DNA of 59,826 nucleotides from Dehalococcoidia bacterium (GCA_009692945.1 SHYD01000005.1:1-59826); one strand, 5' to 3'; shown: positions 7,960-54,095, counted from the stretch's first letter. Numbers and translations are program-made. Notes: generated by a model not told the origin, from the sequence alone.

Positions 7960-7989
7960 GTGGCAGGGCGAATCGAGTGAGAGTTAGAG

Positions 7990-8260
7990 TTGAGGGGCTA
8001 TCGGGCTCAGGAGCGGGAGTGCACGAGGGCGGCGGCCCTCGGCCGGGGGCGTGGGGGTGCCCCCCACAGAGAATTTCTCTCTCTTTTACCGGGGCGGGGG
8101 AGTGGCTCACGCAAGCTGAATCCTGTGTCTGAATAGATACAGAACCGGGAGCGTGGAAACTTCTCGCCGGACTCGAAGCGTATCGTGTGCGGCCGCCGGC
8201 CCGGCATACTGTTCGAGCGCAGCGAGAACCTGCGCCTCGTAGCGAGACTTACGTTCAGGA
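7990..8260 (+). repeat. Family A REP/MITE-like element, long form (core + GAATAGATAC tail + F hairpin module)
   Basis: Core GGGAGTGCACGAGGGCggcgGCCCTCgGCCGGGGGCGTGGGGGTGCCCCCCACAGAGAATTTCTC at 8015-8080; tail 8110-8260 homologous to 39130-39300 (rc). Confidence 0.8.
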
Positions 8261-12404: not shown

Positions 12405-12525
12405 TCCGGCGCCCGCCCGCCCTCTCCCAAGAGAGAGAGAAAAAAGAGAGGAAAGGTGAGGGGACTGCCCCTCATACTCCCCGCCAGCGGGAGACCCGCT
12501 GGACACCCCTTTTCGTGTATGGGTT
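12405..12525 (-). repeat. Family E repeat (two hairpins CCAGCGGG-N4-CCCGCTGG and GTGAGGGG-N4-CCCCTCA)
   Basis: 12455-12507 is the reverse complement match of 17306-17358. Confidence 0.7.
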
Positions 12526-12534
12526 CACAGTAGC

Positions 12535-12650
12535 GGGCCGTTGGGTTGGGGAGCGGGAGTGCACGAGGGCGCAGCCCTTGCCGGGGGCGTGGGGGTGTCC
12601 CCCACGCAGAATTCTCCCATCTTTTTTCCGGGGTGGCGGCAGGGTTCATG
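12535..12650 (+). repeat. Family A REP/MITE-like element
   Basis: GGGAGTGCACGAGGGCgcaGCCCTTGCCGGGGGCGTGGGGGTGTCCCCCACGCAGAATTCTCC...TTTTTTCC. Confidence 0.8.
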
Positions 12651-12670
12651 CCGCGGGCCCCTGAGCGGCC

Positions 12671-13855
12671 CTACGGCTCGCTGGTCAGCAGCACCCCGCT
12701 GCCGCGCAGCATGGGCGACCCGGCGGTGGCCAGGGCCACGCGGCAGTCCTCCACCTGGCGGCCGGCCGCCCGGCCCGTCACCTGGAGCACGGCCTCGGCC
12801 AGGTGCCCCATGCCGTGGAGCCGCCCTTCGCTTAGCGCGCCGCCGTGGGTGTTCACCGGCAGCTTTCCGCCCAGTTCGATGCGCCCGTCCTGGACGAACT
12901 GCCAGGCCTCGCCCCGGCCGCAGAAGCCGCTGGATTCCAGCCAGTAGTACACCGAGGGGCTGAAGCCGTCGTACAGCTCGGCCACATCAACGTCCTCCGG
13001 CCTCAGTCCGGAGCGTTCCCACAGTTTGCCCGCGATGGAGGCTCCGCTTTCCATATAGTCCGCCATGGTGTAGGGCATCAGGTTGGGGCGGCGCACCGTG
13101 TTCTGGCCGTAGGCCCGCAGGTAGGCCGGTGGGTTGGGGAGATCGCGCGCCCGCTCGGCGGTGGTGAGCACCACCGCCACCGCGCCCTCCACCGGGATGT
13201 CGCAATCGAACAGGCACAGCGGATCGGCGATCATCCGGGCGTTCAGGTAGTCGTCCCGGGTCATGGGCTGGTCCCGGAAGTGGGCCCGCGGGTTGCGGTT
13301 GGCATTGGCCCGCTGGCTCACCACCAGCGTCGCCATAGCCTCCCGCTCCGCTCCGTGCAAACTGAGGTAGCGCTGATAGGCGAAGGCATGGGGCTGGAAG
13401 GAACTGCCGAAGCCGAAGGGGGTCAGGAACTGCGTTTCGCCCGCGGCGTAGCGGGTGCGCACCGCGCCATAGGCGCCGCCAGGCTGGTGCAGCGCCCGCC
13501 ACACCAACGCGTGGGTGCAGGCCCCGGCGATAAGGGCGTTCGCCGCCTCGGCCACCGCGCTCAGCACCATGCCCATCTCGATCTCGGCGTACCACTGGAT
13601 CTCGGGCGCCGCCTTGAGGTGCCGCAGCAGGTACTCCACCGACACCAGGTCGATGCCATCGGTGCTCCCGGCGCCGCGGTAGGGCGCTTCCGGGAAGGCG
13701 GCCAGGCCGTCGATGTCGGTCAGGCGCAGGCCGGCGCCGGCTACGGCGTTTTCGGCAGCCTCCACCGCCCGCGCCCCCAGCGCGCCCTCGCTGCTGCGGG
13801 TGAGGGCGGAGTAACCCACGCCCACCAGCGCCACCTTCCCCGCCCCGGACCACAT
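12671..13855 (-). CDS. Thiolase-like protein (SCP-x/lipid-transfer type, non-condensing)
   Basis: ~395 aa; VALVGVGYS N-terminus and C-terminal NTHGGALSEG...GMGHLAEAV motifs; alternative start 13879. Confidence 0.85.
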   Translation of the reverse strand: MWSGAGKVALVGVGYSALTRSSEGALGARAVEAAENAVAGAGLRLTDIDGLAAFPEAPYRGAGSTDGIDLVSVEYLLRHLKAAPEIQWYAEIEMGMVLSAVAEAANALIAGACTHALVWRALHQPGGAYGAVRTRYAAGETQFLTPFGFGSSFQPHAFAYQRYLSLHGAEREAMATLVVSQRANANRNPRAHFRDQPMTRDDYLNARMIADPLCLFDCDIPVEGAVAVVLTTAERARDLPNPPAYLRAYGQNTVRRPNLMPYTMADYMESGASIAGKLWERSGLRPEDVDVAELYDGFSPSVYYWLESSGFCGRGEAWQFVQDGRIELGGKLPVNTHGGALSEGRLHGMGHLAEAVLQVTGRAAGRQVEDCRVALATAGSPMLRGSGVLLTSEP

Positions 13856-13868
13856 CGGACCCGCCCCC

Positions 13869-14297
13869 TCAGTCCACAACCGGACGGAACTGCGGCAGCG
13901 CCATGCCCTCTTCCGTCCGTTCGAAGGAGACCGACACCAGTTGCCCGATGGCCAACCCCTCGGTTGCGCCCCCCGGCAACCAGCTGATCATGAACAGCAG
14001 TGGCTGCTCCTCGAGTTCGACCAGCAGGTTCACGTAGGGCACCTCGCCCTCGAACCCAGCCACGTTGCGCTGCCGCATCACGGTGAAGCTGTACACCATC
14101 CCCCGTCCGCTGACGGGCTGGAACTTGAGGTCACGGGAGGAGCAGCGGTCGCACAGCGGCTGCGGCGGGTGGTTGTAGTAGCCGCAACCGCCGCAGCGCT
14201 GCACCACCAGCCGGCCCTTGCCGGCCGCATCCCAGAAGGGCTGGGTCAGCGCGTCGGGCTGCGGCAGCGGGCGGGGCGGGGTCCGGAGGTTATCCAC
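13869..14297 (-). CDS. Zn-ribbon/OB-fold protein (DUF35 family), partner of thiolase-like protein
   Basis: PFWDAAGKGRLVVQRCGGCGYYNHPPQPLCDRCSS + OB-fold; GTG start 14295-14297; overlaps downstream thiolase-like gene. Confidence 0.85.
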   Translation of the reverse strand: MDNLRTPPRPLPQPDALTQPFWDAAGKGRLVVQRCGGCGYYNHPPQPLCDRCSSRDLKFQPVSGRGMVYSFTVMRQRNVAGFEGEVPYVNLLVELEEQPLLFMISWLPGGATEGLAIGQLVSVSFERTEEGMALPQFRPVVD

Positions 14298-14330
14298 AGA
14301 TTTGCAGGATTTTCACAGATTCAGAATAGT
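14290..14330 (+). repeat. Family B element (3 x 11-bp phased CACAGAT; head is a perfect TTATCCACA)
   Basis: TTATCCACAGATTTGCAGGATTTTCACAGATTCAG; TTATCCACA at 14290-14298 overlaps the DUF35 start codon. Confidence 0.8.
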
Positions 14331-14455
14331 CCCAAGTCCGGCGTTCAAGGTGCGAGGTTCGGGGAGGAACCCGCAGATGCGCCGGTCGCCGAAGTATCTA
14401 TTCAGACTTAAGTGGCGGCTTTTCAATCGTTTTCCCACCCCGGCAAAAAGGTGGT

Positions 14456-14745
14456 TTTTCTGGGGGAACACCCCACAGGAGTGGGCAGGTTTCTCCTCGA
14501 TTATCCTCAACGACTGTGCTTCCCACCCACCCACCCAGTTCGTTTGTTCGTGGGGACACCCCACACCCCGGCAGAGGGGCTCCCGCCCCTCGTGCACTCC
14601 CCGGTCCGACCGAGCACGCCCAGGCACAAATTGAAAAGGTGCCCACTCCTATGGGAACACCCCCAAGGCCCCGTCCCTTCGACTCGCTCAGGACAAGCAG
14701 GATGGCATCGCACCCTGCACCCCCGTGCCCGAACTGCGACTCTAA
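14456..14745 (+). repeat. Left arm of ~290-bp inverted repeat bracketing the dioxygenase operon
   Basis: By-eye alignment to the reverse complement of 17420-17712 is collinear over the whole length at roughly three-quarters identity. Confidence 0.8.
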
Positions 14746-14774
14746 ACTCGGATGGTCGCCGGTAAGAATTCACT

Positions 14775-14935
14775 GCTTAGGGGCGACCGGGCTCAGGAGT
14801 GGGAGTGCACGAGGGCGCAGCCCTCTGCCGGGGGAGTGGGGGTGACCCCCCCCAAAGAGGATCTCCTCATTTTTCCTAGGGTGGGGGGAGTGGCCTATAC
14901 CTCCGAACCCCTGACACCGAATAGATACCGCCGGT
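14775..14935 (+). repeat. Family A REP/MITE-like element with GAATAGATAC tail
   Basis: GGGAGTGCACGAGGGCgcaGCCCTCTGCCGGGGGAGTGGGGGTGACCCCCCC...CTGACACCGAATAGATAC. Confidence 0.8.
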
Positions 14936-15001
14936 TGGGAATCGACAAGCGCGTTTGTCGAGACTAGTATAATATCCTCGTCAGACAATAAGGAGGTCGC
15001 G

Positions 15002-16390
15002 ATGGTAACCATCCTGCGGGCACGAGGGGACCGGTCGATCAGGTCGTTCATCGACTATGAGCGGGGCACCATAAGCCGGGAGCTCTACGTGCACCCGGAT
15101 ATCTTCGAGCAGGAGATGGAGCAGATCTTCCAGCGCTGCTGGCTGTTCCTGGGCCACGAGAGCCAGATCCCCAACCCCGGCGACTTCATCGTCAGCCGCA
15201 TGGGTACCGAAGAGGTGATCGTGGTCCGGGATCGCAAGGACAAGCAGATCCGCGCCTTCCTCAACTCCTGCCGGCACCGGGGTATGAAGGTGTGCCGGTA
15301 TGACCAGGGCAACAACCTGGTCTTCACCTGCCCCTTCCACGCCTGGACCTACGACACGGCCGGCAAATTGGTGGGCGTGGGCTATGGAAACCATCCGGAG
15401 GCCTACGGCGACACCCGTCCAGGAGATCAGTGGGGGCTGGCGCAAGTGGCCCAGTTCAAGAACTTCCACGGCTCGCTGTGGGCCACCTGGGACCCCAAAG
15501 CACCCTCATTCGAGGATTACCTGGGGCCCTTCACCGCGAGCCTGCGCCACTGCCTGCAATCGAGCGACGGTGAGGACGGTGGGCTCGAGATGTTCACCCC
15601 GTTCCAGCGGCACCGTCTCCCGACCAATTGGAAGGTCCCCGGGTTCACCTCGGTCACCGACGGGACCCATGCGGCCATGACCCACCGGTCCGCCGCGGCC
15701 GCGGGCCTGCACGAGGACCGGGGGCAGGGTAAAGCGAAGCCTGGCACTCCCTTTCCGCGAGAGATGTACGCCATCGGCGACCATAACCTCGGTCACGGCG
15801 GGCAATGCACCTTCTACAACCAGCCTGGCGTCCCCGACTACACTGACGAGTGGTTTGAACCAGGCGTCGACGACTACTTCCGCGAGACCGCGGGCCGCAA
15901 GGCCCAGTTATACGCCAACCGGGTCCTGGCGCCCCATGGCTGGGGTGGCGGGCACTTCGCCATCTTCCCCTGTGTGATGGTGGATAGCTGGCGGATCCGT
16001 TGGTACCACCCGCACGAGACGGGCATGGTGGAGCGCTGGACCCTGTGCGGCGTGGACAAGAACGCTCCGAAGCACGTGAAGAACGCCGTGCGCCATTATG
16101 TGCAGCGCTACAATGGGCCGACCGGCTTCTTCGAGTCCGACGATATGGAGAACTGGAACTACGTTTATCCCGCCAGCCGCGGTGTACGGGCGCGGAAGCT
16201 GGACTACTTTTTCGCCAACGGGCTGGGTCACGGGAAATACGACGACAGGCTCCCGGGCGTGGTGGTCAACGGCGCGTACACCGAAGAGGCCCAGCGCGCC
16301 CGTTTCAGCCGGTGGCTTGCGTTCATGGAAGCCAAGAGCTGGGATGACCTCTACCCGGTCAATACATCGAAGAACCACCGCATCTGGTAG
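15002..16390 (+). CDS. Aromatic ring-hydroxylating dioxygenase, large (alpha) Rieske subunit
   Basis: CRHRG...CPFHAW Rieske motif; 462 aa. Confidence 0.9.
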   Translation: MVTILRARGDRSIRSFIDYERGTISRELYVHPDIFEQEMEQIFQRCWLFLGHESQIPNPGDFIVSRMGTEEVIVVRDRKDKQIRAFLNSCRHRGMKVCRYDQGNNLVFTCPFHAWTYDTAGKLVGVGYGNHPEAYGDTRPGDQWGLAQVAQFKNFHGSLWATWDPKAPSFEDYLGPFTASLRHCLQSSDGEDGGLEMFTPFQRHRLPTNWKVPGFTSVTDGTHAAMTHRSAAAAGLHEDRGQGKAKPGTPFPREMYAIGDHNLGHGGQCTFYNQPGVPDYTDEWFEPGVDDYFRETAGRKAQLYANRVLAPHGWGGGHFAIFPCVMVDSWRIRWYHPHETGMVERWTLCGVDKNAPKHVKNAVRHYVQRYNGPTGFFESDDMENWNYVYPASRGVRARKLDYFFANGLGHGKYDDRLPGVVVNGAYTEEAQRARFSRWLAFMEAKSWDDLYPVNTSKNHRIW

Positions 16391-16400
16391 GGGAAGCGCC

Positions 16401-16634
16401 ATGGCTGAAACGAAGGGGTATGACCTGACGGGGAAGGGTGGGATCCAAGCGTGGAGCAGCCTGCCCGAGGGAACCAAGCTCACGCTCCTCAATGGGGCCG
16501 TGGGTGAGATCATCGCGAATCCCCACGATGGCGGATGGGTCCTGATCAAGTTCCAGGAGCATCCGCACGATCCCTCCAAGGTGGGCCAGGAAGAGTACGT
16601 ATTCTTCAACGAGGTACAAACAGCAGCGGGCTGA
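16401..16634 (+). CDS. Hypothetical 77-aa protein encoded between dioxygenase alpha and beta genes
   Basis: ATG 16401, 11 nt after alpha stop; MAETKGYDLTGKGGIQAWSSLPEG...; no family recognised. Confidence 0.45.
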   Translation: MAETKGYDLTGKGGIQAWSSLPEGTKLTLLNGAVGEIIANPHDGGWVLIKFQEHPHDPSKVGQEEYVFFNEVQTAAG

Positions 16635-16709
16635 TGGCGGCGCGGCGGCGCGGCGGCGCTTGGCGATGCGCCGGCGCCGTTCCCCTGCCGCAACGCCTGA
16701 GGAGCACCA

Positions 16710-17258
16710 TTGATGTTGGAACTAACCACGGTGGACACCGCATCGCTGCAGCGCGTGATCTTGCAGCACGACGTCGAGCAGTTTCTGTATAAAGAGGCTC
16801 GGCTGCTGGACGAGCGCCGGCTGGAGGAGTGGTTGGAACTCTTGGCCGAGGAGCTTCACTACTGGATGCCCATGCGCCGCAACATCAAGTTCGGCGATTG
16901 GGACCTGGAGTTCACCAGCCACGAGACCGAGATCAACTGGTTCGATGAGGGGAAGGACGTCCTGGCGGGTCGGATCCGGCAGATCAACACCGGGGTCCAC
17001 TGGCCCGAAGAGCCGGTCTCCCGGTTCGAGCACATCATCAGCAACGTGGAACTGGTGGGCGTGGAAGGCGACGAGATCAGCGTCAACAGCAAGTTCTTCT
17101 GCTACCAGAACCGCCTCCAGGACGAGGTGAACCAGTGGGTGGGGCGGCGAGAGGACCTGTTGCGGCGGGACCCCGCCACCAAATTCAAGCTCGTCAAGCG
17201 AAAGATCATCCTCGCGCAGAATGTGATGCTCCCCAAGGTGGTCAACACCTTCTTCTAG
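16710..17258 (+). CDS. Aromatic ring-hydroxylating dioxygenase, small (beta) subunit
   Basis: 182 aa; FLYKEARLLDERRLEEWLELLAEELHYWMP is the typical beta-subunit (SnoaL-like) N-terminus. Confidence 0.9.
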   Translation: MMLELTTVDTASLQRVILQHDVEQFLYKEARLLDERRLEEWLELLAEELHYWMPMRRNIKFGDWDLEFTSHETEINWFDEGKDVLAGRIRQINTGVHWPEEPVSRFEHIISNVELVGVEGDEISVNSKFFCYQNRLQDEVNQWVGRREDLLRRDPATKFKLVKRKIILAQNVMLPKVVNTFF

Positions 17259-17294
17259 CGCACTTCGCGAGGAGTGGGGCATGATGGCGACCCC

Positions 17295-17395
17295 GCTCTG
17301 AACCGGGTGTCCAGCGGGTCTCCCGCTGGCGGGGAGCGTGAGGGGGGCGCCTCCTCACTCCATCTTCTTGATTCCCCTCTCCTTTGGGCCGTGGC
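17295..17395 (+). repeat. Family E repeat
   Basis: GGTGTCCAGCGGGTCTCCCGCTGGCGGGGAGCGTGAGGGGGGCGCCTCCTCAC, inverted relative to the 12405-12525 copy. Confidence 0.7.
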
Positions 17396-17419
17396 CGCTG
17401 GCCAGGCGGTAAGAGCTCA

Positions 17420-17750
17420 GTGTTCGGGGGTCGGACACGGGGGTGCAGGGGGCGAAGCCCCGCTGCTTGTCCTGGACCCGCCGAAGGGCCGGGGGTCTGG
17501 GGGTGTTCCCCATAGGAGTGGGCACCTTTTTGCTTCATGCCTGGATGAGGGCTTTGGGACGGGGGTGTGCAGAGGGGGCGAAGCCCCTTCTGCCGGGGCC
17601 TGGGGTGTCCCCACACACAAACGAAATGGGTGGGTCGGTGGGAAGTGCAGCCTTGGAGGTTGTCCGAGGAGAAACCTGCTCACTCCTATGGGTGTTCCCC
17701 CAGGAACAAGAACTTCTCTTTTCCTTGGGGGGTGGGGCCACCGACCGGGA
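17420..17750 (-). repeat. Right arm of ~290-bp inverted repeat bracketing the dioxygenase operon (outer tail resembles family A' tail)
   Basis: Reverse complement aligns to 14456-14745; 17690-17750 also matches 19730-19790. Confidence 0.8.
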
Positions 17751-17803
17751 GGTAGCCCCCGAAGGCTGAGCAGTTACGCCAGGCGTTTATCGGCGGAGTG
17801 ATC

Positions 17804-18145
17804 ATGACTGCACGAATCGAGTGGAGAACCAAGGGGAAGGGCGACGACGCCCTGCTGTTCGTGAGAGAGTTCGGCGAGGCCGGCGATACGGTGCTGAAGA
17901 TGTGGGACGCCGACCGGGGACGCATCACCGATTTCCTGAACGGGATGGTGGAGCTGGAATCCGCCGTGGTGAGCCTGGAGACCAGCGTAGACCAGCGCGA
18001 TCCCCTCCAGTGGGGCGAGCTTGTGCTTTCACGGGCCCAGCCAGGCGGCGATGTGTTGGACATCGACCCCGAGATCTACTGGGACCAGATCTATTACTGG
18101 TTCAGGTCGCATGGTATCGATCCGCACCCCTGGCGCCCGCGCTGA
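17804..18145 (+). CDS. Hypothetical protein
   Basis: 113-aa ORF with GGCGGAG RBS-like sequence upstream of ATG 17804; no family recognised. Confidence 0.5.
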   Translation: MTARIEWRTKGKGDDALLFVREFGEAGDTVLKMWDADRGRITDFLNGMVELESAVVSLETSVDQRDPLQWGELVLSRAQPGGDVLDIDPEIYWDQIYYWFRSHGIDPHPWRPR

Positions 18146-18310
18146 CCCAGCCGCCACCAAAGAGAGCCCCAGATTGCGCAGATGCCCGGTGAGCCTTCGG
18201 AACGGGTACCCTTGGTCGCCATCTACCATGACCCGAACTCATTATCCTATCCGGAGAACCGCGTCTGCCCCGGCACCGAGCACGCGACTGTTAAACAACC
18301 ACAACGTGGA

Positions 18311-18342
18311 GGAGGTCGCGAACCGCGCGGTTCGCGACCTCC
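18311..18342. terminator. Perfect 14-bp-stem hairpin, candidate bidirectional terminator
   Basis: GGAGGTCGCGAACC-GCGC-GGTTCGCGACCTCC between convergent ORFs 17804-18145 (+) and 18356-18690 (-). Confidence 0.5.
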
Positions 18343-18355
18343 ATGTCGGCGATGA

Positions 18356-18690
18356 TCAAGGGGTGAGTTTGTTACGGGGATCAGGGACGTGAATAGGGGT
18401 TTCGACGACGTTGGGGTAACGGTTGCTACCCTCGTCGAATATCGGGACTGTCTTTCCACCCTTTTTACTACCAAGGTTGATGGTAACCCGGACGATGTAG
18501 TCGCCTTCGGACACCCCGGTGATGTCGATCCATTGGCCACCCAGTTGTTTGTAGTACCAGTCACCCCAGCCGGAGGTAATACCCTGGTATCCGCAGTTAT
18601 AGCCACCGCTCTTTTCGCCGTCATACTTGAAGGAGTCCTCAAAGCAGAAGCCCTGCTTCCATGTAGCAGACGGTTGCCAGCAGGTCTGTG
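18356..18690 (-). pseudogene. Lysyl oxidase (LOX) family C-terminal remnant
   Basis: WKQGFCFEDSF...QGITSGWGDWYYKQLGGQWIDITGVSEGDYIVRVTINL parallels the LOX catalytic-domain C-terminus; no start codon, copper-binding His motif absent, abuts cyclase stop. Confidence 0.55.
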
Positions 18691-18702
18691 CTCTCAGCGC
18701 CG

Positions 18703-19659
18703 CTACTTGATCACATACGCGTTGGCGGGCGAGCCCACGCCGCCGGGGATGCTCAGCGGTTTCACCGTCACCATGAACTCGTACACCCCATCGCGGGCGC
18801 AGTCCTCGGCGAGTTCGGCGAAGGTGAACAGTTCGCCGATGCCCATGCCCAGCATGGCGAGGATGCGGCGGTGCTGGAACTCGGTGCCCTCCACCCGCAT
18901 CGCCTCCAGCGCGATGTTGTCGGCCAGCAGCACCGAGAAGCCGCGGTCCCACAGCCACGCCGCGGTACCCTGGCCTGCGTCGAGTCCGGGGCATTCGAGG
19001 CCGCTCTCCCGGTTGTGAACGGTGCCCGCCAGGGGGGCGCGCTGCTCCGGAGTCATGCCGAGGTACCAGTCCATCCAGCCGGTGCGCAACAGCATCATGT
19101 CGCCTTCCTCGAAGGCGACGCCCTGGGCGGCGGCGACGGCGTCCAGCAGTTCTCCGGTGATGGCGAAGCGGCGGTACGGGGCCAGGGGAGCGCCCCGCCG
19201 CGCCAGGTGGCCGGCGACATCCAGCAGCACGCCGCGGCCCACCACGCCGTGCTCGGCCCAGCGCTGGATACCGAGCGCAGGGGTTGCGTCGAGGTCCGCC
19301 TCCTGCCGCCCGCCGTAGTAGCCGAACTCCCGGTAACGGATGTGGCGCAGGCTGTCCAGATGGCCAACGCCGCCGTGCAGTTCGAAGGCGTCGGCGGTGT
19401 CGCTGCGGCCGCCGCGGTGCACGTGGGTGTGGTGCTGATACGGGGTCTCGGCGGGCCGGTTGGGGTGGGGCACGGCGCGCGACGGCTCGATGTTGAACAC
19501 GCGGCCCCGGCCCACCAACCCGGCGGCGCGCCGCACCCGCTCGGGGGTCAGGAGGTTGAGCATCCCCAGGTCATCGCCGGGGCCCCACACGTCCCAGGCG
19601 TGCCGTTCGGTGGTGCCCTCGATCAGGGGGAGATCGGCGAAGGCGGGCCGGGCGTTCAT
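18703..19659 (-). CDS. Cyclase family protein (kynurenine formamidase-like)
   Basis: 318 aa from MNARPAF; HTHVHRGG and DSLRHI-type metal motifs; the upstream part of the ORF track entry is repeat translation. Confidence 0.85.
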   Translation of the reverse strand: MNARPAFADLPLIEGTTERHAWDVWGPGDDLGMLNLLTPERVRRAAGLVGRGRVFNIEPSRAVPHPNRPAETPYQHHTHVHRGGRSDTADAFELHGGVGHLDSLRHIRYREFGYYGGRQEADLDATPALGIQRWAEHGVVGRGVLLDVAGHLARRGAPLAPYRRFAITGELLDAVAAAQGVAFEEGDMMLLRTGWMDWYLGMTPEQRAPLAGTVHNRESGLECPGLDAGQGTAAWLWDRGFSVLLADNIALEAMRVEGTEFQHRRILAMLGMGIGELFTFAELAEDCARDGVYEFMVTVKPLSIPGGVGSPANAYVIK

Positions 19660-23139: not shown

Positions 23140-23300
23140 GGGTGTACCTATTCAGTGTCAGGGGTTCGGGGGTATGAGCCACGCCCCCCACCCCAGGGAA
23201 AAAAAGAGGAGGATTCTCTGTGGGGGGCACCCCCACTGCCCCGGCAGAGGGCTGTCGCCCTCATGCACTCCCACTTCTGCGCCCGGCCGCCCCCAATAGT
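23140..23300 (-). repeat. Family A REP/MITE-like element with tail
   Basis: Reverse complement of the A core; head GTACCTATTCAGTGTCAGGGGTTCGG is the rc of the 14900-14935 tail. Confidence 0.8.
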
Positions 23301-23651
23301 GCCATTGCCACGCGCGGAGTGGAAGCTGCACAGGCCTTTAGCGTCGACCGCACGGGGACGCTCGGGGTTTTGCGCTTATGTCAACGGGCCGAGAGGGCCT
23401 CTAAGCTAACCCATCAACGGATTGTCAACAAATCGTGGAAATCGGCCGCTAAATGCCCTTGCTCGGAGGTACTCCCCTTGGTACCCTTAGACGTCCGCCC
23501 GGCAGGATGGCTTGCCGCACCGGCCAGCCATTCCAAGGAACTCCGAGCACCTCCCTGTTTGACGCGGCGCACCTACCGGTCCGCAGCTGGTGGCCCCTGT
23601 CCGCGGCATCATTTCATTCATCTCTCTCCCATCCGGTCCTGGAGGACTTGC

Positions 23652-25028
23652 ATGACACAGCAATCTGCGGACGATATCTGGTCCGCTGCCCTCGGTGAAC
23701 TCCAGGTCCAGGTGGCGAGAGCTAACTACGACACCTGGTTGAAGGACACCAAAGGCCTGTCCCTGTTGGGTGACGTGTTCACCGTCGGTGCTCCAACCTC
23801 CTTTGCGATGGAATGGCTGGACAAGCGCCTTACCGCGCTCATCCGCAAGACCGTGGCCGGCATCCTGGGGCGGGATGTCGAACTGCGCTTCGTGGTGCTT
23901 GATGCCAAGAACGCGGCATTGTTGTCGCCCTCCGGCGAAGCCCCGCAAGCCGGCGTGCCACCCTCCGTGCCTACGAGCTACCAAGGTGTCCGCCTCAATC
24001 CCCGCTATACCTTTGCCTCCTTTATCGTCGGAGCGCCAAACCGTTTCGCCCACGCCGCGGCCGCCGCGGTCGCTGAGGGTCCCGGCCGGAGTTACAACCC
24101 CCTTTTCTTATACGGCGGGGTGGGCCTTGGCAAGACCCACCTGCTCCACGCCATCGGTCAACACTGCCGGGCCGCGGGGCATAACGTTCTCTACATCACC
24201 TCCGAACAGTTCACCAACGAGTTCATCAACGCCCTGCGGGAGCGCAAGACCGAGGAGTTCCGAGCGAAGTACCGCGGCGTCGATGTCCTGCTCATCGACG
24301 ACATCCACTTCATCGCGGACAAGGAGCAGACCCAGGAGAGCTTCTTCCACACCTTCAACGACCTGCACAACGCCAACCGGCAGATCGTCATAAGCAGCGA
24401 CCGTTCCCCGCGATCGATGCCTCTCCTGGAAGACCGCCTCCGGTCTCGCTTCGAGTGGGGGCTCATCGCCGATGTGCAGCCGCCCGACCTCGAAATGCGC
24501 CTGGCCATTCTCCGAAGCAAGGTGGAGGAGGCACATTTGGCCCTGCCGGGTGAGGTGATCAGCTTGATCGCCCACCGTTTCCAGAGCAACATTCGTGAAC
24601 TAGAAGGGGCGCTTAACCGGGTCCTCGCCTATTGCCAGTTGCAACATACGGCCCCCACCCTGGAGATTGCCGAACAGGCGTTGGAACCATTGCTTCACCG
24701 CGCTGGCCGGCAACACGCCAACCCCACCCGCATTATCACGGCCGTTGCCGAGTACACCCACGTGTCGATTGAGGAGCTGACGGGTCCACGCCGGTCGAAG
24801 GACATCGCATTCGCCCGGCAGATCGCCATGTATGTCCTACGAATGGAGACCTCTCTTTCGTTCGCGGCGATCGGCGGCGCGCTGGGTAACCGGGACCACT
24901 CCACCATCCTTCATGGCTTCGAGAAGATCGCCGACGCGGTTGAAGCCAACACGTCGGTGCGGCGCACCGTGGCCGAAGTCACCAATATCCTGCGCGGCAC
25001 GGCGGGCCAGAACAGCATGACCGCCTGA
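23652..25028 (+). CDS. dnaA: Chromosomal replication initiator protein DnaA
   Basis: 458 aa from MTQQSADDIWSAAL; Walker A GGVGLGKTHL, LLIDDIHF, C-terminal DnaA-box-binding HSTILHG motif. Confidence 0.95.
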   Translation: MTQQSADDIWSAALGELQVQVARANYDTWLKDTKGLSLLGDVFTVGAPTSFAMEWLDKRLTALIRKTVAGILGRDVELRFVVLDAKNAALLSPSGEAPQAGVPPSVPTSYQGVRLNPRYTFASFIVGAPNRFAHAAAAAVAEGPGRSYNPLFLYGGVGLGKTHLLHAIGQHCRAAGHNVLYITSEQFTNEFINALRERKTEEFRAKYRGVDVLLIDDIHFIADKEQTQESFFHTFNDLHNANRQIVISSDRSPRSMPLLEDRLRSRFEWGLIADVQPPDLEMRLAILRSKVEEAHLALPGEVISLIAHRFQSNIRELEGALNRVLAYCQLQHTAPTLEIAEQALEPLLHRAGRQHANPTRIITAVAEYTHVSIEELTGPRRSKDIAFARQIAMYVLRMETSLSFAAIGGALGNRDHSTILHGFEKIADAVEANTSVRRTVAEVTNILRGTAGQNSMTA

Positions 25029-27215: not shown

Positions 27216-28553
27216 TCACACCCCCGCGTGGTTCACCCCGGCGAGGACTTTGCGGTGTTCGTGGGTGGACTCGATCCAGGACACCTCCTCAGGGATCAGC
27301 ACCGCTGCGCCCCGCACCCGGTAGAGCTCGGGGTGGTGCACCGTGGCCGGTACGGCGCCCCGCTCACGGAGGTCTTGGGCCGCATGCAGCAGCGCCCGCC
27401 GTGCCGCGATGATGCCCAGGTCGGTGGTGCCGAGATGCTCGATGGTGCGGTCGTTGATCCGGCCCATGCTCAGTTGCACCCCCGCGTCCTGGGCCCAGAA
27501 CTCCGGGATACCGGAGTAGGTCTTGGTGCGCTGCACCGCGCGGTCGATGAAGAAGTCGTTCTCCAGGGTGGCCTTGGGCCGCCAGGCGCCGAAGGGCGCT
27601 GAGGTGGCGGGAGCGCGGTCCTCGGGCTCGATGTAGAACACGTTGCCGCGGATGCGGAATCCGCCCTTGACGAGGTTCTGCCCGCCTCGCTCCGATTCCA
27701 GCAGCGGCCGCAGCGGGTGGAAGTTCGCGCCCATGACCAGCGTGTTCTGATCGTCGATGGGAACCCAGCAGCGCCAGGTGCGCATCGGATTCTCGCCGTA
27801 GGGCCCGGTCATGGTGTGGTAGGGGTACAACCACTGTGTGAGCCTCCAGTAGCGCAACCCCTCGCCGGCCTTCCGGCCCGACCCGATGAGCACCCCGTAG
27901 TCCGTCTCCTGGATCTTGAACTGGGGGGCGGTGTCCACCGCCCGGATGCGGGCTACGCCGTTGCGGGGAGAGAGATCGTCGTCGGGGTTGAGCATGGTGT
28001 GGAGGAAGGAGTTGTGGCTCTGGTCGATCTCCCCCTCCATGGCCTGCACCCAATTGGAGTACTGCACCCGCTTGGAGAGCCAGCGTTGCGCCGGAGGCAC
28101 CAGCGTGACCTCGAGTTCGGGGAGCGGCGGCACAGAGTCGCCGGCGCCCATGTAAGCCCAGACCATGCCGCCATGCTCGACGCAGGGGTAGGCCAAGTGG
28201 CGGATCTTGTGCTTGAAGTTGCTCTCGGCGGGCTCGTTGGGCATGTCCACGCAGTTGCCGGAGGCTTCGAACTTCCAGCCGTGGTACACGCAGCGTAGCC
28301 CGCCCTCCTCGTTGCGCCCGAAGAACAGCGAGGCGCCCCGGTGCGGGCAGTTGGCGCCCAGCAGCCCGACTGTGCCCGCACCGGTGCGGAAGGCGATCAG
28401 GTCTTCGCCCAACAGGCGGACCCGCAGCGGCGGCCCGTCTGGCGGCAGCTCATCAGGGAACAGGAACGGGTGCCAGTACTGCCGCAGCAGGCCGCCCATC
28501 TCCGTACCCGGGCCGATCCGCGTCAGGCGCTCGTTCTCGGCTCGGCTCAGCAT
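27216..28553 (-). CDS. Rieske (2Fe-2S) oxygenase, KshA/phthalate-family alpha subunit
   Basis: CPHRGASL...CVYHGWKF Rieske motif; 445 aa; no adjacent beta subunit. Confidence 0.9.
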   Translation of the reverse strand: MLSRAENERLTRIGPGTEMGGLLRQYWHPFLFPDELPPDGPPLRVRLLGEDLIAFRTGAGTVGLLGANCPHRGASLFFGRNEEGGLRCVYHGWKFEASGNCVDMPNEPAESNFKHKIRHLAYPCVEHGGMVWAYMGAGDSVPPLPELEVTLVPPAQRWLSKRVQYSNWVQAMEGEIDQSHNSFLHTMLNPDDDLSPRNGVARIRAVDTAPQFKIQETDYGVLIGSGRKAGEGLRYWRLTQWLYPYHTMTGPYGENPMRTWRCWVPIDDQNTLVMGANFHPLRPLLESERGGQNLVKGGFRIRGNVFYIEPEDRAPATSAPFGAWRPKATLENDFFIDRAVQRTKTYSGIPEFWAQDAGVQLSMGRINDRTIEHLGTTDLGIIAARRALLHAAQDLRERGAVPATVHHPELYRVRGAAVLIPEEVSWIESTHEHRKVLAGVNHAGV

Positions 28554-30039: not shown

Positions 30040-30048
30040 TCCCCGAAG

Positions 30049-30080
30049 GATCCGCAGATGGACAGGATTTGCGCAGATAT
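30049..30080 (+). repeat. Family B element
   Basis: GGATCCGCAGATGGACAGGATTTGCGCAGATATTGG, 10 nt after the Gfo/Idh/MocA stop. Confidence 0.75.
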
Positions 30081-31119: not shown

Positions 31120-31336
31120 GTACCCACAGATTACACAGATTTGCAGAGATTCCGGAGTGGTTTGGGGTGGGGGCGTGGCAGCAATGAATACGTTGCCATC
31201 CCGGGAACGGCGCGTACGGTGTAGGGGCGAATCACCATTCGCCCGGCAGACCCGAGGCGGTTGCCGGCCGGCTCGACGGCACAGACCACGCCCATCCGCC
31301 TCCCAATCTGTGAAAATCCTATGAATCTGTGGATCA
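31120..31336. mobile_element. MITE-like unit: two family B elements in inverted orientation flanking a GTAG-headed REP hairpin
   Basis: CCCACAGATTACACAGATTTGCAGAGATT (31122-31150) vs rc GATCCACAGATTCATAGGATTTTCACAGATTGGG (31304-31336); GTAGGGGCGAATcaccATTCGCCC at 31221-31244. Confidence 0.4.
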
Positions 31337-31365
31337 CCTTCGGCCTCCTCCTGTAAGATCAAGCC

Positions 31366-36774: not shown

Positions 36775-37250
36775 GGTGTGCGGGCAGGGAGGGGCACGTT
36801 GCAACGTGCCCCTACGCCGGTGCGATACGCGTGGGGGAGCGGGAATCCGGGTAGCGGCGACCCATGCGTCGCACGGACGGGACGGCGGCGACGCATGGTG
36901 GCGGCCACGAGGCGGGGTGCGGGCGCCGGCACGTTGTCCTGGGGCGATGCCTCAGGCTGGTATAGAATGGGCCGGTGGCCCTCCCTGACCAACGTTACGT
37001 GTCGGACTAACCAGCTGGCGCGGGCCGCGGCGCGGGGCACGTTGTCCTGGGGCGATGCCCCAGGCTGGTATCGAACGGGCCGGTGGCCCTCCTGATCCGC
37101 GCCCCGACCTGGCGATCAAGCCGATGACCGGGCCGGCACGTTGTGCTGGGGTTCCCCCGAATCAGGCCGCGCCAACGGCGCACCCCATACCAGCCTGGGA
37201 CATCGCCCCAGTTGGCGCCGCCACCCATCGCGGGCGGGCCGGGCGCCGCC
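36775..37250. repeat. Cluster of family C palindromic REPs plus ~90-bp tandem/inverted D repeats
   Basis: GGGGCACGTTGCAACGTGCCCCTAC (36791-36815); GTAGCGGCGACcCATGCGTCGC; D unit GGCACGTTGTCCTGGGGCGATGCCyCAGGCTGGTAT.GAA.GGGCCGGTGGCCCTCC at ~36929-36985 and ~37026-37082, partial inverted copy ~37137-37215. Confidence 0.75.
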
Positions 37251-37899: not shown

Positions 37900-38310
37900 G
37901 GTGCGGCAGCACCGGAATGCTGCGCCCGGAAGCGGGGTGTCGCGGCGACGCATGCGTCGCCCCACCGAGAATGAAGAAAGGGTTGTTGCCCTTGGGGGGG
38001 ACACGCTCAAGCACCGTGCCGAAGGGTTTGGCGGAAGGTAGAGGCACGTTGCAACGTGCCCCTACGACGCAACGACTGCGCGCCCTTCGGGGCAGGGGCG
38101 GGTTGCAAACCCGCCCGATGTCGGATGAGGTGCGCGTGGTTAACGTCACAACCGGTCGGTGTACGGGGCCGGACACGGGGGTGCAAGGGAACGATGTAGG
38201 GCCGACGCATGCGTCGGCCCTACATCGTTTAGACAGCCGAGGTCAATCTGGGGCAACCCTTCCTCGAACATTGGCCCGCTGGCGGTTTCAAACCCGCCCC
38301 TACGATTCGT
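37900..38310. repeat. Cluster of family C palindromic REPs
   Basis: GGCGACGCATGCGTCGCC (~37937); GTAGAGGCACGTTGCAACGTGCCCCTAC (~38039-38066); GGGCGGGTTgcaAACCCGCCC (~38098); 34-bp perfect palindrome GATGTAGGGCCGACGCATGCGTCGGCCCTACATC (~38192-38225); AAACCCGCCCCTAC (~38290). Confidence 0.8.
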
Positions 38311-43552: not shown

Positions 43553-43654
43553 GTTAACCCTCCCTAACCGTGCTACAAGACGTTTCCTGTACCCGTATTT
43601 TGGTCGTAGTTTAAGGGACTGTGCGGCGCTCGGAACCAGCCTCGGCCTGATCGC

Positions 43655-43775
43655 CCGCCCCACCCCAGAAAAAACAGGAGAATTCTATGTGGGGGGCACC
43701 CCCACTCCCCCGGCAGAGGGCTGTCGCCCTCGTGCACTCCCACTTCCGAACCCGGCCGCCCCGCAACAGTGAACT
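43655..43775 (-). repeat. Family A REP/MITE-like element
   Basis: GGAGAATTCTATGTGGGGGGCACCCCCACTCCCCCGGCAGAGGGCtgtcGCCCTCGTGCACTCCCAC. Confidence 0.8.
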
Positions 43776-43794
43776 CGTACGTTTTCCCCGTGCC

Positions 43795-44967
43795 CTACCC
43801 CCTCGGCAGGCCAAGGCCCCGTTGCGCGATGACGTTGCGGTTGATCTCCGACGTCCCCAGACCGATGGTGTAATAAACGGTTTCTTTATACATCATTTCG
43901 ATGCGGCCCTGAAGCGGGGTGTACTTGGAACGGCGGTTCAACTGGCCGTACAGCCCCATCATGTTCATGGCGGTGCTGGCCAAACGCTGGCTCACCTCAC
44001 CGCCCATGATCTTGGAGGCCGAGTTCTCCCGTGTGGGATCCATGCCGTTGACCTGCGCCCAGATGGCCCGGTAGAACACCCAGCGCGCCAGGTCGATCGC
44101 GATGGCGAGTTCGGCCAGCCGGTTCCTCACCTCGGGCCGCTTCCCGATGGGTCGGCCGTTGTAGGCCGTGCTCGCGACGAAGCCGGTCACGTCGTCCAGC
44201 AGCCGCTTGGCCTGGGTGGCGCGGTTGATGCCGCCCCGCTCCGAGGAGAGCGCCGACACCAGCAGATACCAGCCCTCGTTCTCCCGCCCCACCAGATGGT
44301 CCTTGGGCACCCGCACGTCTTCCAAGAACACCTCGTTCTGGGCGTGAGCGCCGGTGAGGTTGATCAGCGGCCGCACCGTCACCCCGGGCGATTTCATGTC
44401 CACCAGCAGGAAGCTGATGCCGCGGTGCTTGGGCACCTCGGTATCGGTGCGGCAGGCCAGCAGGCCCCAGTCAGCCAAGTGAGCGCCGGTGTTGAACACC
44501 TTCTGCCCGTTCACCACGTAGTCGTCCCCCGTCAGCACCGCCCGGGTGCGCAGCGAGGCGAGGTCGGAGCCGGATTCGGGCTCGGTGAAGAGCTGGCACC
44601 AGGAGTAGTCGGCGTTGGCAATCGGACCGAGGAAGCGGCGCTTCTGGTCGTCGGTGCCGGCATGCATCAGCAGGGGCGCCACCACCATGTTGCCGCCGTC
44701 CCAGGCGCCGGGGAAGCGGTGGTACGTGACTTCCTCGCTGAAGATGAGCTGCCGCCACGCCCCGTAGCCCAGCCCCCCGTAGGCCTCAGGCCAGTGCATG
44801 ACCCGCCACTTGGTGGGCAGGAGTTTGCGGGCAAACTCCTGGGCGTAGACCTCCTCTTCCTCTTCATCCAGGTTCATCTCGTCCCAGTTGGGTGGAATCG
44901 TCTTGCGGATGAAGCTCCGCACCTCGCTGCGAAACGCGTTGTCTTCAGGGGTCCAGCCGAAATCCAT
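43795..44967 (-). CDS. Acyl-CoA dehydrogenase
   Basis: 391 aa from MDFGWTPEDNAF; ACAD N/M/C domain pattern, C-terminal YKETVYYTIGLGTSEINRNVIA. Confidence 0.9.
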   Translation of the reverse strand: MDFGWTPEDNAFRSEVRSFIRKTIPPNWDEMNLDEEEEEVYAQEFARKLLPTKWRVMHWPEAYGGLGYGAWRQLIFSEEVTYHRFPGAWDGGNMVVAPLLMHAGTDDQKRRFLGPIANADYSWCQLFTEPESGSDLASLRTRAVLTGDDYVVNGQKVFNTGAHLADWGLLACRTDTEVPKHRGISFLLVDMKSPGVTVRPLINLTGAHAQNEVFLEDVRVPKDHLVGRENEGWYLLVSALSSERGGINRATQAKRLLDDVTGFVASTAYNGRPIGKRPEVRNRLAELAIAIDLARWVFYRAIWAQVNGMDPTRENSASKIMGGEVSQRLASTAMNMMGLYGQLNRRSKYTPLQGRIEMMYKETVYYTIGLGTSEINRNVIAQRGLGLPRG

Positions 44968-45074
44968 GCCGCTATCCTCACGAAAAGATTGCCGCGCCCG
45001 CGCTCTCCCGCCGCGGTCACAGCTTAGTACGGAGGGGGTTCCGCTGTCTAACCCTAATGGATGGTGCGTCGGCC

Positions 45075-45235
45075 AGAGTTGAGGGCTGCCGGGCTCAGGA
45101 GCGGGAGTGCACAAGGGCGGTAGCCCGCCTGGTTGTCCTGATCTCGTCGAAGGGCCGGGGGCGTGGGGGCGCCCCCAAACAGAATTCTCCTCTTTCCCCT
45201 GGGGTGGGGGGAGTCGCTCGCATCGCCCCAACCCT
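45075..45235 (+). repeat. Family A element with ~25-bp insertion in first hairpin
   Basis: GGGAGTGCACAAGGGCGG...(insert)...GGGCCGGGGGCGTGGGGGCGCCCCCAAACAGAATTCTCC. Confidence 0.75.
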
Positions 45236-45247
45236 CAGAAGCCGTCA

Positions 45248-48672: not shown

Positions 48673-48719
48673 TGTGAACACGGTATGACGCGGGCGTGGC
48701 GGCACCCCGCCTGGGGATC

Positions 48720-48865
48720 TATTCCGTGTCAGGGGATCAGGAGGTAAGAGCCACGCCCCCCACCTCAGGAAGAAAAGAGGAGAATTCTATGTGGGGGACA
48801 CCCCCACTCCCCCGGCAGAGGGCTGCCGCCCTCATGCACTCCCGCTTCTGAGCCCGGCAGTCCCT
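48720..48865 (-). repeat. Family A REP/MITE-like element with tail
   Basis: TATTCCGTGTCAGGGG...GGAGAATTCTATGTGGGGGACACCCCCACTCCCCCGGCAGAGGGCtgccGCCCTCATGCACTCCCGC. Confidence 0.8.
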
Positions 48866-48959
48866 CACCTGTGACTCTTGCCCCACCTGCCATCACACGC
48901 TTGATCCGGCGCTCAGGTGCTATAATCCGGGCTGAACATCCGTTCCGAAGGACCGCCCT

Positions 48960-53523: not shown

Positions 53524-54095
53524 CCGGAAGGCCGCGCCGCGTGCTGATTGTCGAAGACCAACTCATGGTCCGGCGCGCATTGAGACTGGCGTTCAGAGCC
53601 TTCGACGACATAGAAGTTGTCGGGGAGGCGGTGGACGGCCCCGAAGCGCTGGAGGCGTGCGGCCAGTTGCTCCCGGACCTGGTGCTGCTGGACCTCATCC
53701 TGCCCACCACCAATGGGGCGCAGGTGACGCACCTGTTGAAGCAGCGCCACCCCGAGGTCCACATCCTCGGCCTGACCAGCTTCGTGGACAGCCCTCTGGT
53801 GACCGAGATGCTGCGGGCGGGCGCGGCCGACTGCCTCCAAAAAACGGTGACGCCGTCTGAGATGGTGGCCGCAATCCGCCGCGGCGTCGGACGGCCCGCC
53901 CAAAGTCATCCACAGATTGAGGATGTATGTAAGATTGCTTCATGGATGAGTTCATTGCAGAGGGGCCGTTGGGTTGGGGAGTGGGAGTGCACGAGGGCTG
54001 CCGCCCTCTGCCGGGGGTGTGGGGGTGTCCCCCAAAGAGAATTCTTCCCTCTTTTTCTGGGGTTGGGGGTGGAGGTTCATGCCGCCGGCTCCTGA
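53520..54095 (+). CDS. Response regulator receiver protein lacking an output domain; ORF 3' part is read-through into repeats
   Basis: REC domain VLIVEDQ...LVLLDLILP...LTSF... ends ~53890; from 53906 the ORF translates family B and A repeats until TGA 54095; GTGA overlap with kinase stop. Confidence 0.7.
   Translation: MTGRPRRVLIVEDQLMVRRALRLAFRAFDDIEVVGEAVDGPEALEACGQLLPDLVLLDLILPTTNGAQVTHLLKQRHPEVHILGLTSFVDSPLVTEMLRAGAADCLQKTVTPSEMVAAIRRGVGRPAQSHPQIEDVCKIASWMSSLQRGRWVGEWECTRAAALCRGCGGVPQREFFPLFLGLGVEVHAAGS
53906..53940 (+). repeat. Family B element (degenerate 2nd/3rd subrepeats)
   Basis: GTCATCCACAGATTGAGGATGTATGTAAGATTGC. Confidence 0.65.
53960..54078 (+). repeat. Family A REP/MITE-like element
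   Basis: GGGAGTGCACGAGGGCtgccGCCCTCTGCCGGGGGTGTGGGGGTGTCCCCCAAAGAGAATTCTTCCCTCTTTTTCTGGGG. Confidence 0.8.

Follow-up and report, generated by a model that had tools for sequence, protein, structure and literature searches.

The stretch of DNA analysed here, 59,826 nt from a Dehalococcoidia bacterium (GCA_009692945.1, SHYD01000005.1:1-59826; hereafter the window), contains a Rieske ring-hydroxylating dioxygenase operon, part of which lies between two inverted arms of about 290 bp. The first-pass annotation had taken the 3.3-kb segment bounded by the arms for a transposase-less cassette, a reading that is now largely refuted. The arms are two ordinary insertions of a MITE (miniature inverted-repeat transposable element) into repetitive extragenic palindromic (REP)-like units, here called family A, and they happen to bracket three genes. 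The MITEs belong to a hairpin-loop-targeting, IS4-like DDE insertion sequence (IS) family of uncultured Chloroflexota. The likely history of the locus combines independent MITE insertions into two family-A loops with a separate 4.4-kb relocation of the dioxygenase genes by unrelated breakpoints.

Anatomy of the inverted arms

In a self-comparison of the whole window the arms were the top-scoring repeat pair. Gapped blastn of 14456-14745 against the window aligned 14459-14740 with the reverse complement of 17424-17706 over 285 columns, with 79.6% identity and 4 gaps (E 1.5e-63), each of the remaining matches corresponding to just a 50-85-nt sub-unit. An ungapped search returned the pairs 14455-14672/17492-17709 (218 nt, 76% complementary) and 14653-14739/17424-17510 (87 nt, 79%), and the longest exact blocks common to both arms measured 22, 15, 15, 14 and 14 nt, the G+C content of the window being 66%. 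The collinearity that had been read by eye is thus real, and all the shared strings quoted for it are present. The first-pass annotation had further made the cassette depend on an identity better than that between random family-A copies. In this respect the 80% of the arms is no higher than that of some family-A copies, which reach 88-89% over 115-150 nt; what sets the arms apart is not percent identity but their length and a 184-bp core that is absent elsewhere in the 60 kb.

This core has the anatomy of a MITE. The 21-mer CCCAYAGGAGTGRGCASSTTT has exactly 4 matches in the window when 3 mismatches are allowed, against 0.03 expected, and these form an inverted pair inside each arm. The terminal inverted repeat (TIR) has 16 nt, CCCATAGGAGTGGGCA, and is preserved at 15/16 positions at the outer end and 16/16 at the inner end of each element. 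Both cores are bounded by perfect 5-bp target-site duplications (TSDs), beyond which GGGGG and CCCC are found. The arms and the repeats enclosed by them are composed as follows.

14430-14466, + strand: left arm, outer half of the host family-A unit, ending in GGGGG; aligns with uninterrupted copies after MITE removal
14467-14471: left TSD copy of MITE-L, AACAC, perfect 5 bp
14472-14655, + strand: MITE-L, 184 bp, with TIRs CCCACAGGAGTGGGCA(GG) and (CC)-type CCCATAGGAGTGGGCA; TIR matches at 14472(+) and 14655(-)
14656-14660: right TSD copy of MITE-L, AACAC, identical pentamer
14661-14745, + strand: left arm, inner half of its host unit, a family-A copy of the long subfamily; 73% identical to the right inner half and collinear with 45076-45208 across the excision point
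14761-14953, - strand: uninterrupted family-A copy between left arm and promoter, with 78-85% identity to 23144-23296 and 48691-48882
17305-17388, - strand: family-E palindromic repeat, core CCAGCGGGAGACCCGCTGG, with an inverted partner at 12426-12508
17420-17503, - strand: right arm, inner half of the host family-A unit
17504-17508: left TSD copy of MITE-R, TGTTC, perfect 5 bp
17509-17692, - strand: MITE-R, 184 bp, inverted relative to MITE-L; TIR matches at 17509(+) and 17692(-)
17693-17697: right TSD copy of MITE-R, TGTTC, identical pentamer
17698-17745, - strand: outer half of the host family-A unit in the right arm; shares 62.5% identity with its left counterpart and is collinear with uninterrupted family-A copies

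Deletion of the core and of one pentamer leaves CTGGGGGAACACCCCCA and rejoins flanks that are collinear with intact family-A units (e.g. 45070-45211) through their G5/C5 box. The restoration of this box indicates that each arm is a family-A unit carrying a MITE in its hairpin loop. Besides showing TIRs and TSDs, the 184-bp elements have no transposase open reading frame (ORF) and share their TIRs with a transposase-coding element described below, as MITEs do; they also fold into long hairpins (-70 to -94 kcal/mol), as expected for TIR elements. MITE-L and MITE-R are identical at 148/185 positions (80%). The interior of MITE-L, devoid of ORFs, contains a family-A-like unit, and this second unit within the core explains why each arm had been perceived as a dimer of family-A-like hairpin units resembling a bacterial interspersed mosaic element (BIME). 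That perception was correct as to the composite and partly family-A-like nature of the arms; their specific part, however, is a DDE-type MITE and not a REP dimer.

The host repeat is abundant. Family A consists of intergenic, GC-rich, REP-like units of about 130-150 nt with two hairpins, about 12-15 copies of which occur in both orientations in the window, or roughly one per 4-5 kb (e.g. 7980-8149, 12512-12664, 23140-23301, 43632-43808, 48691-48882 and 53939-54104), the hairpin box being GGGGG-AACA-CCCCC. The host units of both arms share a 24-nt subfamily insert with the copy at 45060-45240. Family-A repeats are absent from the orthologous spacers of the related contigs L002 and L138, which indicates that they have spread recently in the lineage of the window. 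The nested inverted pair of family-E repeats noticed at first reading was confirmed, with 41 nt at 95% identity between 12468-12508 and 17305-17345 and 85 nt at 79% between 12426-12508 and 17388-17305; a third family-E copy is found in a related groundwater contig, L045. The same contig holds the one partial copy of the MITE core detected beyond the two in the window: at L045 5380-5590 a normal family-A unit is joined to the CC-type end alone of the core (80% identity to MITE positions 73-184), with a family-E hairpin immediately after it, a junction that may offer a clue to the origin of the core.

As had been stated from the first reading, the window encodes neither a transposase nor an integrase: Pfam scans found none among ~50 window ORFs, which likewise include no Y1 (RAYT) transposase gene, and tblastn with the cognate transposase of the family described below gave no homologue in the window (best E 1.5). 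Rfam yielded no match in the whole window at the gathering threshold or in 14250-17850 at E <= 1, and a scan of the window for transfer RNA and transfer-messenger RNA genes as integration sites found none.

The parent insertion sequence family

When the terminal motif was scanned against public genome and metagenome collections, matches were obtained in 7 contigs of metagenome-assembled genomes (MAGs) of groundwater Chloroflexota and Dehalococcoidia, several of them at contig ends, and in at least 120 metagenomic stretches; the element family occurs in soil and groundwater metagenomes. In two of the loci, L040 and L063, a motif pair lies 1,419 bp apart; the copies show 100% identity over the span from CCCATAGG through CCTATGGG, whereas their flanks are unrelated. 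The abrupt end of this identity fixes the ends of the element. It codes for a 439-aa ORF recognised by DDE_Tnp_1 (PF01609, 27.7 bits against a cut-off of 23), and the full-length transposase stays below the cut-offs of the curated IS4 models (NF033591, 63 bits against 152; NF033592, 31 bits against 115). In an alignment of 13 members with 46-83% identity to the query, D111, D175, E316, Y309 and R312 are invariant. Of the Y-(2)-R-(3)-E-(6)-K signature, Y309, R312 and E316 are therefore invariant; an R320 is found at +4, and the alignment summary shows no invariant K at +6/+7.

The association between TIR and transposase is consistent, as all 19 TIR pairs that were fetched enclose a transposase homologue (37-100% aa identity), 17 of them spanning 1.4-1.6 kb and two about 4.4 kb. 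The two longer ones, L083 (341-4703) and L028 (815-5281), were considered as cargo transposons and discarded: each is an IS copy in which one and the same ~2.9-kb nested insertion interrupts the transposase gene; the insertion codes for a large serine recombinase of 760 aa (domains Resolvase, Recombinase and Zn_ribbon_recom). About 500 homologues of the transposase are present in the protein collection, nearly all unnamed and on contigs of 1.4-2 kb. The family also comprises many short derivatives of 100-357 bp that have the termini alone in common, and 19/31 MITEs keep a perfect 5-6-bp TSD. A preference for hairpin loops is seen across the family, in that 38/47 non-redundant elements have G4-5/C4-5 or GCGAC/GTCGC stems, complementary to each other, on their two sides. 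The G-run at -10 to -6 did not figure in the search pattern and hence was not imposed by it.

A 191-192-bp MITE subfamily with termini TCCATAGGAGTGGGCA always occupies a TGCGA-N6-TCGCA palindrome and is accompanied by a 6-bp duplication. It was observed in L022, L023, L032, L052, L056, L058, L059, L066, L072, L079, L106, L107, L132 and other loci, mostly JAABU* metagenome contigs.

The transposase had no meaningful match by tblastn in PLSDB plasmid records or among PDB sequences, and these comparisons offered no link to ISRm22 or to any other named IS. Concerning the TIR string and descriptions of MITEs or REPs in Chloroflexi, nothing specific was found in the searchable literature, ISfinder being outside this search.

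The dioxygenase module and its 4.4-kb insertion

The arms enclose, as originally described, the alpha gene, a 77-aa ORF, the beta gene and two smaller repeats (the family-A copy at 14761-14953 and the family-E copy at 17305-17388). They do not, however, delimit the genetic unit to which these genes belong, nor the DNA that was moved. The relevant features are listed below, with relatives named by their contigs.

12671-13855, - strand: SCP-x-type thiolase (Pfam), on the other side of the split operon
13869-14297, - strand: DUF35/ChsH2-like OB protein (Pfam); with the thiolase (12671-14297 block) 82.4% nt identity to L138
14283-18701, no strand: insertion, 4,419 nt, absent between cyclase stop and DUF35 start in L138 and L139
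14942-14970, + strand: sigma-70-like promoter match, the only one in the region, TCGACA-17-TAGTAT; putative function, from consensus match
15002-16390, + strand: Rieske ring-hydroxylating oxygenase alpha, HcaE-like (PF00355; NCBIfam HcaE 300 bits against a cut-off of 830, below equivalog)
16401-16634, + strand: conserved 77-aa ORF between alpha and beta, no family match; pN/pS 0.48 against L002
16713-17258, + strand: ring-hydroxylating oxygenase beta (PF00866; NCBIfam PRK10069 180 bits against a cut-off of 145)
17804-18145, + strand: 113-aa gene, fourth gene of the module, parted from beta by the right arm; 90% nt identity to L002, pN/pS 0.25
18356-18700, - strand: lysyl-oxidase-like gene remnant (3' part) that retains the C-terminal ~110 codons and lacks a start codon; the ORF around it matches PF01186 (E 1e-11)
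18703-19659, - strand: putative cyclase (PF04199), 83.7% nt identity to the L138 cyclase; directly upstream of DUF35 in relatives

The closest relative of the module is represented by three independent assemblies (L002, L003 and L004), in which alpha is 95% identical at the aa level and 90% at the nt level. These contigs match the window at 14978-17257 and 17778-18145, with 47 nt between the two segments against 520 nt in the window, so that the right arm is polymorphic, being absent in all three with homology on both sides of the gap. A homologous gene of 113-118 aa is present in L002, L005, L008, L141 and L142, where the spacer from beta to this fourth gene is 4-102 nt long, and every lineage examined has the same set of alpha, a 75-77-aa ORF, beta and a 113-118-aa ORF. 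Both the conserved gene set and the comparison of spacers place the E repeat and the right arm between the third and fourth genes of a conserved module of four. The four genes are intact and under purifying selection, with ratios of nonsynonymous to synonymous differences (pN/pS) of 0.08-0.48 and pS of 0.22-0.29 against L002. The module is intact in six different contexts, its surroundings differing in each of five other lineages, and no inverted repeat of at least 30 nt was found around it in five relatives. The first-pass annotation itself had named arms that vary independently of the operon in relatives as speaking against its cassette, and the relatives do have the operon and no arms. In contigs with the exact window proteins the module was seen in the present context only. 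A short-read contig of the same organism (L001) corresponds to window 14856-17334 and breaks in the repeats.

The 77-aa and 113-aa ORFs, conserved with the oxygenase in every lineage examined and having no Pfam or NCBIfam match, are predicted to encode uncharacterised accessory components of the Rieske oxygenase module. A second, LigXa-like Rieske oxygenase is encoded at 27216-28553 on the minus strand, and LigXa-like genes are also found near the thiolase or dioxygenase blocks of L139 and L141, which suggests a wider aromatic or steroid-type catabolic neighbourhood.

The segment that distinguishes this locus from related genomes was delimited with L138 (thiolase 90% aa identity) and L139 (79%, on a 2.8-Mb contig), in which cyclase, DUF35 and thiolase genes adjoin, with 10-33 nt between cyclase and DUF35. 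By blastn, L138 1131-2070 equals window 19641-18702 and L138 2089-3699 equals window 14282-12672, an 18-nt spacer in L138 taking the place of the 4,419-nt insertion. Within this insertion are the two arms, the complete four-gene module, oriented on the opposite strand, and a tail of 556 nt; a gene for a short-chain dehydrogenase/reductase (SDR), on the strand opposite to the dioxygenase genes, also belongs to the left flank. In the tail, the lysyl-oxidase-like frame runs into the cyclase stop, the gene being cut at the insert boundary; no full-length counterpart that would mark the donor context was found beside the module in L002, L005, L008, L141 or L142. The insert extends ~190 nt beyond the left MITE and ~1 kb beyond the right one, and a search for terminal repeats or duplications at its ends returned only 7-9-nt chance matches. 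The module was thus relocated, by an event of the breakpoint type with limits other than the MITE termini. Hence the suspicion of a mobile-DNA origin was partly justified, in that the arms derive from DNA needing a transposase in trans and the dioxygenase genes did move relative to related genomes, but the arms are not the boundaries of a cassette.

Several other observations concern the insertion and its left flank. A ~47-nt motif with two spaced ATCTGTG(G/A)A boxes occurs in three copies (14275-14321, 31305-31351 and ~30040-30079). One copy, which includes the perfect DnaA-box sequence TTATCCACA at 14290-14298, makes up the left end of the 4.4-kb insert and gives DUF35 its new GTG start and first five codons; another lies just upstream of an 85-aa gene. 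The motif may be regulatory or promoter-bearing. In ERZ1305449, a contig with the exact DUF35-thiolase-SDR block of the window has panC (pantoate ligase), a gene not found in the window, 760 nt past DUF35 in place of the operon, and this contig represents either a strain rearrangement or recombinant, or an assembly chimera within the repeat zone. A 32-nt palindrome at 18311-18342, between the convergent 113-aa gene and lysyl-oxidase-like remnant, may act as a bidirectional terminator.

Elsewhere in the window, dnaA (23220-25028) is followed by obg and nadD, and in the dnaA-obg spacer, at about 25.2-25.4 kb, a negative GC skew becomes positive; taken together, this gene order and skew switch indicate that the window probably spans the chromosomal replication origin. 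Further perfect or near-perfect palindromes are found at 38190-38229 (40 nt) and 53495-53540 (46 nt), and the spacer after a 1,187-aa ORF (36930-37215) contains two direct ~57-nt copies (CACGTTGTCCTGGGGCGATGCC.CAGGCTGGTAT...), a partial third and an inverted partial one.

Origin of the arrangement and known systems

Whether the arms reflect one insertion event or two is informed by the register of their duplications. The two arms yield one and the same reconstructed target (CTGGGGGAACACCCCCA), within which AACAC was duplicated in one arm and GAACA in the other, so that both junctions are shifted by 1 nt. Since the two registers are offset and each duplication is still perfect, two independent insertions account for the data with no indel needed. 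The MITE cores are also more similar to each other (148/185, 80%) than are the host halves (93/134, 69%; Fisher p 0.035), and the same IS family is found in the same CTGGGGGAACACCCCCAGG-type box at other loci (L040, L048 and L063). With ~15 target boxes in the window, 13 of the 105 possible pairs fall within 3.3 kb, so that two neighbouring occupied sites are only mildly unusual.

The likely course of events can be pictured as follows. An IS family of 1.4-1.6 kb, with a 16-nt TIR and a ~440-aa transposase, would act in trans on its MITEs, the enzyme making a 5-bp staggered cut in the loop of G4-5/C4-5 palindromes. Two MITEs would have inserted independently and in opposite orientation into two family-A units, one 350 bp upstream of alpha and the other between beta and the fourth gene of the module. 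The arms would then resemble each other over ~285 nt both because their MITEs are of one family (80%) and because these entered target repeats of one kind (62-73%). In a separate event, the four-gene module would have arrived within the 4.4-kb segment 14283-18701, splitting the cyclase-DUF35-thiolase operon. Of this account, the structure of the arms, their TIRs and TSDs, the link between TIR and transposase, the sites without the arm in relatives and the limits of the insert were observed; we infer the cutting mechanism, the order of these events and the presence, now or formerly, of the cognate transposase in the genome.

Some observations weigh against this account. Most full-length IS copies in metagenome contigs are without TSDs, which we attribute to short-read assemblies having joined the wrong flanks across a repeat of 1.4 kb and many copies; recombination or another mechanism could also be responsible. 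No direct parent emerged among the fetched elements, whose similarity to the window MITEs ends within ~24 nt of the termini (the TIR plus ~8 nt), the conservation of the TIRs was in part imposed by the search pattern, and the copy number of the MITEs is that of a 60-kb span in which the transposase is not encoded. In addition, the gap in L002 also lacks the host A-unit and is therefore larger than the MITE, marking the absence of the arm and not a clean MITE-sized gap. Finally, the two arms agree in how the MITE is oriented within its host unit, and no sequence in the window matches a host half better than its counterpart in the other arm, which would also fit the duplication of an A-unit-plus-MITE composite; under such a duplication, the 1-nt register difference could result from two homopolymer indels.

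This last alternative, in which the arms are inverted duplicates of one ancestral composite generated by the family-A spreading process or by local recombination or repair, would explain why the ~285-nt collinearity includes the host-unit halves, why both cores have 184 bp and why the halves are closer to each other (73-77%) than to the copy at 45070 (69-72%). It is nevertheless unlikely, as it needs two coordinated homopolymer indels among just 4 alignment gaps and the TSD is perfect in each arm, the flanks are less similar than the core, and the same IS family strikes the CTGGGGGAACACCCCCAGG-type box independently in three other loci. A composite transposon bounded by the MITEs, latent or active, is highly improbable. 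Here a transposase supplied from elsewhere would use the outer termini at 14472 and 17692 to move the 3.2-kb alpha-77aa-beta segment, and several features are those expected of such a structure: two inverted copies of one MITE family with near-intact TIRs, outer termini both of GG or IRL (left inverted repeat) type as in the inverted IS copies of Tn5/Tn10, and a real transposase family using such TIRs. MITE pairs have moreover been reported elsewhere to mobilise intervening genes (PMC3934969, PMC10969869), and the occupation of two of ~15 boxes within 3.3 kb is mildly unusual. Yet a separate TSD and the two halves of a separate target repeat accompany each MITE, showing that the pair was not moved as a unit since insertion, and the single outer duplication expected of a composite is missing, as the outer flanks, AACAC and TGTTC (reverse complement GAACA), are not shared. 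Furthermore, the right MITE interrupts a conserved module of four genes, the last of which is still syntenic, the boundaries of the inserted DNA (14283-18701) differ from the outer MITE ends, the MITEs are just 80% identical, both mismatches to the TIR consensus sit in the outer ends and no second context was found. The proposal that a 3.3-kb cassette was mobilised as a unit fails on these same grounds.

It is quite improbable, too, that both MITEs are still competent ends, movable by an IS4-like transposase encoded elsewhere in the genome; if true, catabolic oxygenase genes of uncultured groundwater bacteria could be shuffled in this way, by means of an IS family whose specific targets are hairpin loops in the REP-like repeats of its own host. 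That the arms are selected cis-acting elements, serving insulation or termination, pairing of the 5' and 3' transcript ends or a recombination switch inverting the operon, is barely conceivable. Their inverted arrangement, the long hairpins that each MITE can form and a CC-type terminus resembling a weak hairpin followed by a T-run (17509-17531) would agree with such roles. Against them, there was no Rfam match even at the relaxed threshold, the arms are missing from the relatives, and the four genes are all under purifying selection. The left arm is probably outside the operon transcript, given that the only promoter-like site, overlapping the palindrome GACAAGCGCGTTTGTC (14944-14959), is downstream of it, and the 22 nt of longest perfect identity are marginal for RecA-type recombination. 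No support was therefore seen for a regulatory or switching role, nor for the earlier suggestion that the arms are a substrate for inversion by homologous recombination.

In summary, what appeared as a transposase-less cassette resolves into two ordinary MITE insertions, in a module that was moved by another, larger event splitting a cyclase-DUF35-thiolase operon. The locus shows repeats nested in one another, with a MITE lodged in a REP-like unit, in a lineage of uncultured Chloroflexota, and explains why short-read assemblies break at exactly these repeats, which is useful for annotation and for MAG assembly and curation. It also brings to light a lineage of IS4-like transposases, for the most part unannotated, whose elements have a 16-nt TIR that is strongly conserved, prefer the loops of G/C-stem hairpins and include many MITE derivatives. 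The understanding of mobile elements in general is unchanged; the locus adds to known kinds, as MITEs of a REP-loop-targeting DDE IS family, in Chloroflexota.

The nearest precedent is set by IS that enter REP palindromes at their axis, a behaviour well documented in five families, with the IS4-type ISRm22 among the examples (Tobes & Pareja 2006, PMC1525189). The REP-targeting elements comprise IS1397/ISKpn1 and ISPsy8 (IS3 family), ISRm22 (IS4 family) and ISPpu9/ISPpu10/ISPa11/IS621 (IS110 family) (PMC1525189). As in these cases, the window elements sit at a fixed point in the axis or loop of the palindrome and are flanked by the broken halves of a repeat that is restored by removing the element and one duplication; the differences are that the host belongs to another phylum (uncultured Chloroflexota) and that the window copies are MITE derivatives and not IS. 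ISRm22 is likewise an IS4-type DDE element and generates a 6-bp duplication at the palindrome axis, against 5 bp here, but the transposase of the present family shows no detectable similarity to the plasmid-borne IS of PLSDB, where the Sinorhizobium megaplasmids of the ISRm22 host should be represented, and falls below the NCBIfam IS4 cut-offs. The host repeats, in turn, resemble REP/BIME elements (PMC3333891, PMC2817692) in being abundant, intergenic, GC-rich, hairpin-forming and present in both orientations, and depart from REP/BIME-RAYT systems in the size of family A (~130-150 nt with two hairpins, against 20-40-nt REPs) and in the lack of a Y1/RAYT gene in the window.

Concerning the pairing of elements around genes, in Acinetobacter a pair of 439-bp MITEs flanks class 1 integrons (Zong 2014, PMC3934969; review PMC10969869). 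There, as here, transposase-less copies bracket functional genes, the duplication has 5 bp and a transposase is needed in trans. The Acinetobacter MITEs, however, are 100% identical and in direct orientation, with a 5-bp repeat around a whole structure that recurs in different contexts, whereas those of the window are 80% identical and inverted, each with its own duplication, and were seen in one context. With Tn5 and Tn10 (inverted IS50 and IS10, IS4 family) the arrangement shares inverted IS4-type copies whose transposase-upstream end faces outward on both sides; it differs from them in that neither copy encodes a transposase, no duplication surrounds the composite and the boundaries of the putative cargo do not match those of the relocated DNA.

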